From a virus (taxonomy: Duplodnaviria > Heunggongvirae > Uroviricota > Caudoviricetes): a stretch of DNA of 35,878 nt. The notes below the pieces were generated by a model. It was not told the origin of the DNA, did no database searches, and saw only the letters and a program-made list of their open reading frames with translations. The stretch lies in the IMG/VR virus record IMGVR_UViG_2684622775_000005. One strand, written 5' to 3'. Shown here piece after piece: positions 25,029 to 27,440 of this stretch. The position numbers and the translations under genes are program-made. Each line of letters begins with the position of its first letter. Position 1 is the first letter of the stretch.

Positions 25029-25075
25029 TGGCACAGAGTAAAGCCTAATCTGACAGTCCGCTCTGTGCCAAAAGC
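25029..25075. repeat. cassette-flank motif A1 (hairpin whose 3' arm is GTCCGCTCTGTGCCAAAAGC)
   Basis: The 20-mer GTCCGCTCTGTGCCAAAAGC (25056-25075) is identical to 26237-26256; 5' arm TGGCACAGAG pairs with CTCTGTGCCA. Confidence 0.7.
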
Positions 25076-25212
25076 AGACATTGGATAAGTCTTTGTTACT
25101 TATAAGGCTACAATCCAGCTGATATGATAGACTGTTTAATAGCTAGTGTGTTAACAAGTCAAAAAATGTAGAATTTAGTTCCTAGCCACTTCTGAATACA
25201 TATGGATGCTGT

Positions 25213-25941
25213 ATGAGTAACCCATTCACTCTTGAAATACTTCAGGCTATCAACGATTGGCAGCGCAGTACGACTAAAAATCGTGGTAAAAAATTAGAGA
25301 CTCTATGTGTAAATCTTCCCGCTCAATACAAAACTGTTGATTTTGCCTGCTACAGAAAAATAAATTTGCAGAAGGATGGTGTATTTAGCATGTTCGCCCA
25401 CTATCGTCTTCCGGAAAGAATTTCCTCATGGTCTTCTTCAGTCGACGTCGTCAAAAATTTTAAACACGGTGTATCGTTAAATATCGTCGAACAATCTTTT
25501 ATCTATCAAACTAGTCCAACTCCAAATGAAATCATTCTTAATCTTATAGCAGTCTACAATTCTTCTGATTTTCAAAGTGCTCTTAGCCTACATAGAAAGG
25601 ATATTGATAATGTTCATCTAGGCATTGATAAATATGGTAATAGCCAACTTGAAGTGGTCTTAAAAAAAGATTTTGTTACACACAATGACATATACATGCT
25701 GGGTGGTCGTTCAAGCGCTTTCTGTGTTTCTCACTCTCCAATCATCCAAAAGATGTCATTAAGTTACTTGGATTACGATATTAGAAAAAATAAAGTTATC
25801 GCTTTCAAATGGTTAAGCCATGAAATAACACGACGAATCATTGATAGGATTCTCAGAAAGTACCCTCAACCTTTCAATGCTTATGGGAAGAGCTACGGAT
25901 ATATCATCCCTAAGAAAGGAAAGGAGAAACCTAGAAGGTGA
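25213..25941 (+). CDS. cargo gene 1 at the Z/fun position: hypothetical protein (242 aa), function unknown
   Basis: AT-rich ORF with ATG start, between G and FI; Lys/Arg-rich C-terminus; no recognisable catalytic motif. Confidence 0.7.
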   Translation: MSNPFTLEILQAINDWQRSTTKNRGKKLETLCVNLPAQYKTVDFACYRKINLQKDGVFSMFAHYRLPERISSWSSSVDVVKNFKHGVSLNIVEQSFIYQTSPTPNEIILNLIAVYNSSDFQSALSLHRKDIDNVHLGIDKYGNSQLEVVLKKDFVTHNDIYMLGGRSSAFCVSHSPIIQKMSLSYLDYDIRKNKVIAFKWLSHEITRRIIDRILRKYPQPFNAYGKSYGYIIPKKGKEKPRR

Positions 25942-26027
25942 CTTATAAGCCTAACTGGGTTGATCTGCTTCCCGTTAATTAACACTCAGCAATGCTAGTA
26001 ACATCCCTTGGTTGGTGATAACAATTA

Positions 26028-26048
26028 CCAACGTCCGCTCCTCGCTCA
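26028..26048. repeat. cassette-flank motif B1 (AACGTCCGCTCCTCGCTCA)
   Basis: 18 of 19 nt identical to 27422-27440; shares the core GTCCGCT with motif A. Confidence 0.65.
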
Positions 26049-26208
26049 GGCTGTGTGAAAACGTTAGTGATGACATAACCGGCCAAGAATAGAGTCGAAA
26101 GTGCCCTTCCTACGTAAAATTTGGCGTTGTTGACCAGTCGATCGATTCCAGATTTTGCATAGCCTCACGCGCTTCGGTTTTTGGTTAGGGTTTCACGCTG
26201 CCTGCGCT

Positions 26209-26256
26209 CACAGCGGACCTCAAGGCGCTTCAGGCGGTCCGCTCTGTGCCAAAAGC
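26209..26256. repeat. cassette-flank motif A2 (hairpin; same 3' arm as A1)
   Basis: GTCCGCTCTGTGCCAAAAGC at 26237-26256; a different 5' arm (CACAGCGGACC) still pairs with the conserved 3' arm. Confidence 0.7.
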
Positions 26257-26345
26257 GGGCATTGCTAACATCAATATAAATTGTTCTATGGGGCGCATGT
26301 CATTTGCAGTATATAAAGAAGAAATTAAAAGACTGTCAAATAAAA

Positions 26346-26363
26346 AGCCCCTCTACAGGGGCT
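26346..26363. terminator. bidirectional intrinsic terminator just downstream of cargo gene 2
   Basis: AGCCCCT-ctaca-AGGGGCT flanked by TAAAAA and GAGTTTTTA. Confidence 0.6.
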
Positions 26364-26369
26364 GAGTTT

Positions 26370-27140
26370 TTACTGTTTACCACGTTTAGTCATCTCATCT
26401 GCTAACTGTGAAGACCAATAATGTTGATTCTTCGCATCTAATATGAAGTGTAGCGCTCTCGCGCAGTGTATCTGAGCAGACTCATAAGCATGGATATTAC
26501 CAACTGAAGTAGGAACTAAGTGGGTTTCAGGTGTGTAGTATTGGTAGATGCTCGTTTGTGAAGGATGAACATATTCGCTAAGTATGTCATACGTCAGTTC
26601 AAAATCGCTTTCTCTCCCCTTAGTCTGTTTCATCTCATCTTCATAGAGATCGCGTAAAGCATTCATCACATGCTGACTGACAGCAAGTAGGTTTTCAAAA
26701 CGATGCTTAGTCTCTTCAGTAAACATGTAGTCGTTAGGGTCAAATACTCCTTTCTGAATCTTTTCTTGCTCTGACTTTTTAAATCGGGAACTGTTCGTAA
26801 AGCCCAGGATGACATCGAGAGCTTTATCTACACTTTCGCGGCCGCTTTGGTTCGTCAGGATCTTCTCCACTTTCTTGTTTAAGAGTCGTGAGAAAGCATG
26901 TGTTTCAATCATCCCCCGGCTAACGACACAAGCGGCTTGGTATCGTTCGTTTTCGAGGAGGAGAAGCGCATCATCAAAGATATCTATCTGCCTGTTCATT
27001 AGCAAATTTGCATAGTTAACGAGATACAACCCCTGATCAGGATTATGCATCTTTCCGACAACTACGCCGTTAACCTTGTTCAGCGCAGCTCTGGCGGCTT
27101 TTGCCTCGTTTAGGCTCTGCTCTATAAGTTCTTTAAACAT
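26370..27140 (-). CDS. cargo gene 2 at the Z/fun position: hypothetical protein (256 aa); weak HEPN-like Rx5H motif (speculative)
   Basis: ORF with ATG start and AAGGAA Shine-Dalgarno; convergent with cargo gene 1; contains SRGMIETH (R-x5-H), compatible with a HEPN-type RNase motif but unverified. Confidence 0.7.
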   Translation of the reverse strand: MFKELIEQSLNEAKAARAALNKVNGVVVGKMHNPDQGLYLVNYANLLMNRQIDIFDDALLLLENERYQAACVVSRGMIETHAFSRLLNKKVEKILTNQSGRESVDKALDVILGFTNSSRFKKSEQEKIQKGVFDPNDYMFTEETKHRFENLLAVSQHVMNALRDLYEDEMKQTKGRESDFELTYDILSEYVHPSQTSIYQYYTPETHLVPTSVGNIHAYESAQIHCARALHFILDAKNQHYWSSQLADEMTKRGKQ

Positions 27141-27421
27141 GCTGTGTTTCCTTACAGGATAATGTGTCTCAACAAGTAATCATTCCAGCTTTTGCCAGCT
27201 TCTTGATCTGTTCTTTTGATAGCAAGGTATTATGCTGAAGAGAGGGGCACCAATCACTAGGATCTTCTCCCAACGATAAGTATAAACCCACCGATGCTGT
27301 AATTATCCCGCTTAATTAAACAAACCACTTTTGGTATTCACTGTAGCCCAATGTGACCTGCCCCTTGTTATTGATACACAACCATGTTAGCAAAAGCCCC
27401 ACCTGCTTGCTAAACCACTCG

Positions 27422-27440
27422 AACGTCCGCTTCTCGCTCA
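27422..27440. repeat. cassette-flank motif B2 (AACGTCCGCTTCTCGCTCA)
   Basis: See B1. Confidence 0.65.

Follow-up and report, generated by a model that had tools for sequence, protein, structure and literature searches.

How do two different cargo genes come to lie one behind the other in a phage genome, each between the same pair of short sequences? The question is raised by IMG/VR virus record IMGVR_UViG_2684622775_000005, a P2-like (Peduovirus) prophage whose whole stretch of 35,878 nucleotides (nt) was analysed and is called the window here. The interval between its tail fibre assembly gene G and its tail sheath gene FI reads G - A - gene1 - B - A - gene2 - B - FI, where A and B are two short motifs. 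A reading made from the letters alone, the sequence-only reading, had given this order correctly and had taken A and B as conserved boundaries of a hotspot in which two cassettes were stacked by recombination between related phages. We consider it likely, judging from comparisons of sequence, that a system of gene-cassette exchange uses A and B as its two heterospecific core recombination sites, with a 200-amino-acid (aa) tyrosine recombinase as the probable enzyme, and that the window holds two stacked cassettes.

The G-FI interval is the known second hotspot of P2-like phages (Z/fun), which holds fun(Z) in phage P2. Its variable cargo is evident from the Pfam assignments of the bordering genes, from the position of fun(Z) in P2 and from phage matches confined to the flanks, since 82 phage records match the 2.6 kb G-to-FI stretch at its two ends alone (16% coverage).

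Both motifs are exact or near-exact repeats beyond what chance would give. The motif A 20-mer, GTCCGCTCTGTGCCAAAAGC, has exact copies at 25056-25075 and 26237-26256 and no other match in the window when up to 3 mismatches are allowed (0.02 expected), while motif B, AACGTCCGCTYCTCGCTCA, stands at 26030-26048 and 27422-27440 (0.00 expected), again with no further copy in the window. The copies are numbered here from G to FI as A1, B1, A2 and B2. The core GTCCGCT, to which the sequence-only reading drew attention, is indeed common to A and B, but by itself it is not significantly enriched (7 found versus 4.1 expected in the window), and the significance rests on the longer motifs and their geometry, not on this heptamer. 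A repeat finder extends the similarity around motif A to 35 nt and gives B1 an inverted partner at 26191-26218. Three features had been overlooked: each motif is a local palindrome, A1 and B2 are inverted relatives of one another over 39 nt, with 74% complementarity by the repeat finder, and an insertion of 162 nt (26049-26210) divides B1.

Each site consists of 24 base pairs (bp), with inverted arms, GTCCGCT and AGCGGAC, around a 10-bp spacer whose central 6 bp are invariant, GTGCCA in A and TCGCTC in B. The consensus of 146 A sites is GTCCGCT-yt-GTGCCA-ra-AGCGGAC-rTT, that of 186 B sites is AAy-GTCCGCT-yy-TCGCTC-Ay-AGCGGAC, and the arm consensus is AAYGTCCGCT / AGCGGACRTT. In both sets the cassette-side arm is better conserved than the other arm, and no conserved sequence was found beyond the 24-bp sites. 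Nearly all stringent arm matches (146/153) carry one of just two spacer classes, the A core or the B core. Sites were called by our own mismatch-threshold scan, and the calls depend on that threshold. A ATGCTAGTAA-like stretch upstream of B in the window was considered as an accessory sequence and rejected, being present at just 4 of 185 sites.

The view of A and B as conserved boundaries of the hotspot is borne out by 12 sequenced phages and 48 aligned flanks, in which phage-constant sequence stops inside A and restarts inside B. On the left, constant sequence runs from the G stop codon through GTCCGCTCTGTGCC, after which the right arm of A changes from cargo to cargo and the sequence beyond is unrelated. 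On the right, it is the left arm of B that differs between cargoes, and constant sequence resumes at TCGCTCAAAGCAGAC and runs from TCGCTCAAAGCAGACTGTCAG onward. Entropy profiles place both switches at positions 10-15 of the site, which is the 6-bp core; in A1 the entropy jump falls at positions 14-17, and phage-constant sequence restarts at position 10 of B. Inverted arms, invariant 6-bp cores and natural breakpoints at positions 10-15 are the features that would be expected of a tyrosine recombinase core site, in which two inverted arms enclose a crossover region of 6-8 bp common to the partner sites. A1 lies 62 nt past the G stop codon, as it does in 30+ P2-like hotspots.

Layouts were compared in 53 IMG/VR P2-like hotspots having both G and FI. 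The order was A-B in 22 of them, A-B-A-B in 5, A only in 8 and B only in 4, with no site in 11 and other arrangements in 3; the B-to-A spacing was exactly 42 nt in 5/5 of the A-B-A-B hotspots. Relatives with one cassette carry a single A and a single B, and those with two carry the series A-B-A-B; the window is accordingly a stack of two cassettes. The sequence-only reading had also proposed looking for the motifs at the other P2 hotspots, where they are absent both in the window and in phage P2. The P2 genome (33.6 kb) contains one A (15335), one B (17432) and no further site, which indicates that its old/tin and orf30 regions do not use A/B.

Cassette arrays and a linked tyrosine recombinase gene

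The sites recur far outside P2-like phages, beside a gene for a 200-aa tyrosine recombinase. In 134 E. coli genomes, this gene has directly upstream of it a copy of a 162-nt segment that also interrupts B1 in the window. A scan of one genome per species yielded 284 relatives of the recombinase, and the loci of the best 79 of these 284 (71-94% protein identity; 1.18 Mb in total) were examined for sites. They include loci from Leclercia, Pantoea, Serratia, Klebsiella, Erwinia, Rahnella, Yersinia, Pseudomonas lundensis, Colwellia and Thalassotalea. The recombinase strand of the 79 loci holds 155 A and 196 B sites, 351 co-oriented sites in all, versus 18 sites on the opposite strand and 2 in shuffled sequence. 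The spacing from B to A is 35-43 nt in 58/94 cases, and in 24/94 it is 682-684 nt, with the recombinase gene nested between B and A; the spacing from A to B is 472-6825 nt, corresponding to cassettes of 0.5-7 kb. By these site counts and spacings, the loci are cassette arrays with compact B-18 nt-A junctions. The place of the recombinase gene is fixed in dozens of genera, with B 66 nt upstream of the ATG and A ~20 nt past the stop codon.

The protein scores 54.5 bits against Pfam Phage_integrase PF00589 (cut-off 27.1), and residues R51, K79, H148, R151, H174 and Y183 are invariant in 32 recombinase homologues, a combination that places it in the tyrosine recombinase superfamily. Its scores are far below the cut-offs of the NCBIfam Xer equivalog models for XerC, XerD and XerA (24.8-46.3 bits, cut-offs 220-335) and of the NCBIfam Fim-type DNA invertase models (20.8 and 16.1 bits, cut-offs 222 and 221). 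No sequence homologue was found in the PDB, and source annotations give the protein generic names alone. Of 5,426 complete E. coli genomes, 801 have the recombinase gene, either chromosomally or on a plasmid, with some copies in lambdoid prophages.

In P2-like phages the gene appears in one IMG/VR contig (L156, 3312-6001; L numbers denote comparison sequences), where a copy with 88% identity and a shortened C-terminus lies inside the G-FI hotspot, accompanied by a 280-aa gene and a gene for a small membrane protein. Yersinia phage vB_YpM_22 retains a remnant of the recombinase 5' end after B. A tblastn search against the sequenced phage collection found no close recombinase copy in P2-like phages.

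Cassettes with the same ends are shared between P2-like hotspots and other genomic contexts, and the homology comes to an end within the 6-bp cores. Phage R18C has two cargo genes with 92-97% protein identity to the genes directly upstream of the recombinase in Pantoea leporis (L072), and the DNA homology stops at TCGCTCA of B. Phage pro147 and contig L129 carry cargo with 91% identity to a cassette in the Erwinia aeris array L071, with homology from the first base of A. A P2-like hotspot cassette (L164) is also found ahead of the recombinase gene in an E. coli lambdoid prophage (L098), where identity begins at A and ends after TCGCTCA, with unrelated sequence outside. Copies of cassette 2 of the window with 86-89% DNA identity are found as the sole cassette in the E. 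coli P2 hotspots L014 and L015 and, with A-like and B-like ends, in a non-P2, IS3-rich E. coli island (L013).

The cassettes are diverse, with 165 clusters among 195 cassettes. Many of them hold antiviral genes; Lamassu, Septu, PARIS, SIR2-HerA, Tmn, restriction and GmrSD genes are among the cargo, as are transporters, LysR and AraC regulators, acetyltransferases and glyoxalases. Open reading frames lie on both strands (138 + / 116 - in 129 distinct cassettes; gene 1 of the window on +, gene 2 on -), and this mixed orientation suggests that cassettes probably carry their own promoters.

Several further observations concern the recombinase loci. The sites that flank the recombinase gene (B ~7938 and A ~8622; e.g., L019, L060, L098) have degenerate inner arms, the flanking B ending in TAAGGGAC and the flanking A starting AGCAGCC, unlike ordinary junction sites; this pair may act as a specialised point of entry or may be weakened. 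In L019 (~7962-8003) and 33 other loci, the recombinase gene has its ribosome-binding site covered by a perfect 12-bp hairpin (ACTCAAATCTCC-CACATTGCA-GGAGATTTGAGT). The hairpin is kept across genera, with a remnant in L010 (~1830-1880), and may control translation of the recombinase. In E. coli, recombinase-linked cassettes are found in lambdoid prophages between replication genes and hokD/rem (L098 3781-9191) and also in L100, an 8.4-kb record annotated as a plasmid; the cargo of L098 and L100 comprises a GIY-YIG nuclease, an AAA ATPase with an HNH endonuclease, and another DUF5677 protein.

Proposed exchange at the sites and its rival explanations

In the mechanism that we favour, the central 6 bp would be the crossover region and a cassette would extend from an A core through the next B core. 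Since the cores differ, A would be expected to recombine with A alone and B with B alone. The P2 G-FI intergenic region, which has one A and one B, would then be a docking pair, and a double exchange of A x A and B x B, presumably catalysed by the 200-aa recombinase, would swap the cargo of the hotspot. Within an array, A x A or B x B would free a circle made up of one cassette and a B-A junction, and integration of such a circle at the A or B of a phage would stack a second cassette, producing G-A1-gene1-B1~A2-gene2-B2-FI, as in the window. The 162-nt element would have entered B1 in a later step. Since the window has no recombinase gene, the recombinase would act in trans.

The sequence-only reading had attributed the stacking to recombination between related phages. 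The two stacked cassettes stand, but this origin is not the best explanation of them, because the same cassettes, with the same end points, turn up outside P2-like phages (in a lambdoid prophage array, in chromosomal arrays of Erwinia and Pantoea and in an E. coli island) and because a tyrosine recombinase gene is linked to the sites. In its full form, this explanation would make A and B mere conserved intergenic flanks, with homologous or microhomology-mediated recombination between related P2-like phages both swapping and stacking cargo. The G and FI flanks are 90-96% identical among phages and so provide ample homology, cassette 2 of the window is present in other P2 hotspots, and a degraded copy of the prophage has a deletion with a microhomology junction. 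Nevertheless, the homology between P2 hotspots and non-P2 arrays ends at the sites, with unrelated DNA outside, and stacking would need a crossover between the right and left flanks, which share just ~8-11 bp. An identical 42-nt B-A junction is found in phages and in the chromosomal arrays of other genera, and the sites are co-oriented with the recombinase gene as well as linked to it. We regard this explanation as unlikely.

Another possibility is that A and B are true recombination sites acted on by a different enzyme, such as host XerC/XerD, P2 Int or another integrase, and that the 200-aa recombinase is a frequent passenger. This would agree with the absence of the recombinase from the window and from ~85% of E. 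coli genomes, and the nearest curated families of the recombinase are Xer-type. The passenger role is hard to reconcile with a gene that keeps its place between B and A in dozens of genera and with catalytic residues that are invariant, and the arms GTCCGCT/AGCGGAC are not known to resemble dif or the P2 attP core. We consider an enzyme other than the 200-aa recombinase distinctly unlikely.

The palindromes could also work as hairpins in RNA or DNA, whether as terminators, insulators or processing sites, and keep cargo transcription apart from the late operons, their position at the boundary being secondary. Pairing potential does exist at A, as the sequence-only reading had noticed, between 25030-25038 and 25061-25069 and between 26206-26219 and 26236-26249; the second of these hairpins is the right arm of B1 pairing with the left arm of A2, since all arms copy one inverted heptamer. 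Both hairpins are able to form in the 48 flanks (94.7% and 86.2% of cells pair), and the palindromes lie between convergent or divergent transcription units. Against this, no covariation was found in the 146 A and 186 B sites, where the Watson-Crick frequency equals the expectation from column composition at every symmetric pair, and compensatory change at the upstream hairpin GGCACAGAG/CTCTGTGCC and at the A palindrome is not above that in shuffles of the 48 phage flanks (81/500 and 107/500). A and B are not called as terminators and have no T-run after them, separate canonical terminators exist, and Rfam has no family at the motifs. The earlier suggestion that the motifs might be RNA elements does not fit these results, and hairpins as the reason for the palindromes are very improbable. 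The suggestion of protein-binding sites fits better, and because covariation is absent, A and B look like putative protein-binding sites, predicted from their sequence, and not like selected RNA hairpins.

The least probable explanation makes A and B the terminal inverted repeats of a transposase-moved element, either transposon-like or resembling a miniature inverted-repeat transposable element (MITE): inverted AAYGTCCGCT copies do bound each cassette and a true MITE-like insertion lies within B1, but cassettes have no associated transposase and no flanking target-site duplications, neighbouring cassettes have their ends in common at a junction of constant length (42 nt), and the enzyme linked to them belongs to the tyrosine recombinases.

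Several points weigh against exchange by the 200-aa recombinase at A and B. Related phages surely also trade cargo through homologous recombination in their G and FI flanks, and the window itself contains no recombinase gene. Of the 53 hotspots, 23 lack one or both sites (11 without a detectable site, 12 with just one), so other routes of turnover or decay of sites must exist. Some cassette spans may hide sites that the mismatch-threshold scan missed. The AlphaFold model of the recombinase is of low confidence (mean predicted local distance difference test score 55.6), so the assignment of its fold comes from Pfam alone. The E. coli recombinase copy that served as query has R in place of H148. 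In the window, B1 is interrupted and the phage-side arm of B2 has 3 mismatches, and the two cassettes may for these reasons no longer be mobile.

The query allele deserves a separate remark. WP_001305755.1 (L016 3211-3813), found in ~130 genomes at at least 99% identity, has R for H148 of the HxxR motif, and with this substitution and a 160-nt element in its upstream B site it may be inactive.

The two cassettes of the window

Table 1. Features of the G-FI interval and its borders, in window coordinates.
Feature	Position	Strand	Remarks
Tail fibre assembly gene G, left conserved border	24467..24994	+	Pfam Caudo_TAP, E=6.7e-34; conserved in P2-like phages
Site A1, GTCCGCT-CT-GTGCCA-AA-AGCAGAC	25056..25079	+	left arm and core are the phage's; right arm is that of cassette 1
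Gene 1 (cargo of cassette 1), 242 aa	25213..25941	+	no family match
Site B1, left arm and core, AAC-GTCCGCT-CC-TCGCTC-A	26030..26048	+	fits the B consensus
162-nt insertion splitting B1	26049..26210	.	inverted ends (GGCTGTGTGAAAACG ... GGTTTCACGCTGCC); duplicates (T/G)CGCTCA
Rest of B1 (C-AGCGGAC, 26211-26218) and 18-nt linker to A2	26211..26236	+	
Site A2, GTCCGCT-CT-GTGCCA-AA-AGCGGGC	26237..26260	+	homology with single-cassette relatives L014 and L013 begins here
Terminator-like hairpin directly downstream of gene 2	26346..26363	-	readable on both strands
Gene 2 (cargo of cassette 2), 256-aa DUF5677 protein	26370..27140	-	Pfam PF18928, E=2.4e-8
Site B2, AAC-GTCCGCT-TC-TCGCTC-AA-AACAGGC	27422..27448	+	left arm is that of cassette 2; right arm is the phage's, degenerate, 3 mismatches
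Terminator-like hairpin in the conserved right flank	27517..27537	+	upstream of the FI late-promoter region as annotated in phage P2
Tail sheath gene FI, right conserved border	27641..28831	+	Pfam Phage_sheath_1, E=2.2e-33

The middle junction departs from the usual form in that B1 breaks off after TCGCTCA and its right arm resumes on the far side of the 162-nt insertion (Table 1). Once the insertion is removed, the spacing between the starts of B1 and A2 is 42 nt, which is modal for the 58 array junctions and is found in all 5 A-B-A-B hotspots. Copies of the segment with 70-81% identity lie beside B sites or the recombinase gene in L016-18, L027, L031 and L084 (twice), which are loci of E. 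coli, Citrobacter, Edaphovirga and Pectobacterium. The 162-nt segment is probably a small mobile insertion that has disabled B1 and probably froze the middle junction. An invertible promoter switch was rejected as an account of the element, since the B-A spacing is canonical once it is removed and copies elsewhere lie in either orientation. Elements of ~160 nt inside or beside B sites, in both orientations, were located at L016 3001-3163, L031 6531-6690, L084 3741-3900 and 5524-5683, and L027 3246-3404, and together they give the appearance of a small mobile element aiming at the B core.

Comparison with Pfam, PADLOC, PHROGs, NCBIfam and PDB sequences gave no match for the protein of gene 1, and the gene was not found among the 5,426 complete E. 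coli genomes. The exact protein is present in many other assemblies, each with identical neighbours, that is, in the same two-cassette prophage, and the exact-protein look-up gave no independent context. For gene 2, DUF5677 is the sole match in the same five collections.

Three other observations were made on this prophage. A sub-threshold Rfam match to the Hfq-binding small RNA STnc150 (26.4 bits versus 60 required) at 27364-27547 (+) covers B2 and the conserved right flank as far as the terminator. In a degraded copy of the prophage (GCA_029360165.1, beside yegR/yegS; L184 4990-5050), window position 26254 is joined to 31941. The left end of this deletion lies inside site A2 right after GTGCCAAAA and is fused to gene T via CAAA(A) microhomology, which could reflect an aberrant recombinase event or chance. 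Positions 6671-8878 (-), in the other P2 hotspot of the window (bordered by replication gene A at 4113-6443 and the portal gene at 9350-10384), encode a 735-aa AAA_13 / PrrC-like ATPase with a match to PDC-S06, a candidate defence family (E=4e-254); that hotspot contains neither A nor B.

Known systems and the meaning of a probable cassette platform

The idea of exchangeable inserts at this locus has a history. According to a review (PMC8987985), Nilsson, Karlsson and Haggard-Ljungquist (Mol Biol Evol 2004) found inverted repeats flanking fun and proposed site-specific exchange; the review defines Z/fun inserts by flanking inverted repeats that are common to phage and bacterial genomes. The window agrees with that definition as the review gives it, since A and B are complementary to one another over 39 nt and the same sites occur in Enterobacterales chromosomes. 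Both the locus and the idea are those of the 2004 proposal as summarised there, and the core of what the sequence-only reading suggested is thus 20 years old. The double cassette of the window is an ordinary instance of a known phenomenon. The available summaries of the 2004 work mention no two site classes, 6-bp core, B-18 nt-A junction, 200-aa recombinase or multi-cassette arrays. Since the P2 part dates, on that summary, from 2004, the gain made here lies in mechanism and breadth and not in the existence of the hotspot. Hotspot papers from 2022-2026 treat the hotspot but not the A/B sites or the recombinase, and neither the recombinase nor the two kinds of site nor the arrays turned up in searches of the searchable literature for the motif strings and for integron-like and cassette-exchange systems. 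This array system, with its two sites and small recombinase, is probably an undescribed variant of site-specific cassette platforms.

Integrons are the natural comparison, because they too have a tyrosine recombinase beside an array of co-oriented sites that part hundreds of small, diverse cassettes, with cargo that includes defence genes, acetyltransferases and glyoxalase-type genes, and with circular intermediates to be expected. The differences are nonetheless considerable. IntI has ~320 aa and an IntI-specific insertion, whereas the protein described here has 200 aa. It matched no integron-integrase model, and the archaeal XerA model, the sole NCBIfam match with integron integrase in its description ("site-specific tyrosine recombinase/integron integrase"), gave 46 of the 220 bits required. 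An attC site is a long imperfect palindrome of 57-141 nt that recombines as a folded single strand, whereas the sites here, at 24-30 bp, have no conserved sequence beyond and no covariation, and form two classes of compact 24-bp palindromes of a presumably double-stranded type. Each cassette has two unlike ends, genes lie on mixed strands where integron cassettes are promoterless and co-oriented under Pc, and the recombinase gene is inside a junction and not at the head of the array.

Other systems share single traits with the arrays. In laboratory recombinase-mediated cassette exchange with heterospecific lox or FRT sites, a cassette is likewise flanked by sites with the same arms and different spacers, and a double exchange swaps the cargo and leaves the flanks intact, an arrangement that the A...B layout of P2 reproduces; the present system would be natural and have another enzyme, and the heterospecificity of A and B would follow from their differing cores. 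In the pdif modules of Acinetobacter plasmids, small modules of accessory genes are bounded, as here, by short inverted-arm sites with a 6-bp centre and are common to several replicons. These modules use host XerC/XerD and dif-like sequences, whereas the arms of A and B show no sequence relationship to those and the arrays contain a dedicated recombinase gene of their own. Invertases of the FimB/FimE type also have ~200 aa and short inverted repeats, and they give weak NCBIfam matches to the recombinase (E=2e-4, 6e-3), but the scores are far under the cut-offs (20.8 versus 222 bits), and the sites here are mostly direct, delimit cassettes and enclose no invertible promoter.

P2-like prophage hotspots of anti-phage genes have been heavily mined for new defence systems, and a 2026 survey lists the route by which defence genes are exchanged between P2/P4 and unrelated mobile elements as unresolved. 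The docking sites and the candidate enzyme make that route testable. The sites also give exact cassette boundaries for mining and join the gene pools of phages, plasmids and chromosomes, and a compact natural two-site system with a 200-aa recombinase could serve genome engineering. More tentatively, and at somewhat less than an even chance in our estimation, there may be a widespread integron-like platform of Gammaproteobacteria, unnamed in the searchable literature, in which the 200-aa recombinase and two heterospecific 24-bp sites array hundreds of different self-expressed cassettes that are shuttled by natural cassette exchange among chromosomal arrays, lambdoid prophages, plasmids and the P2 G-FI pair. 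If this is true, the platform would provide the mechanism, missing so far, by which defence genes pass between P2 phages and mobile elements unrelated to them.

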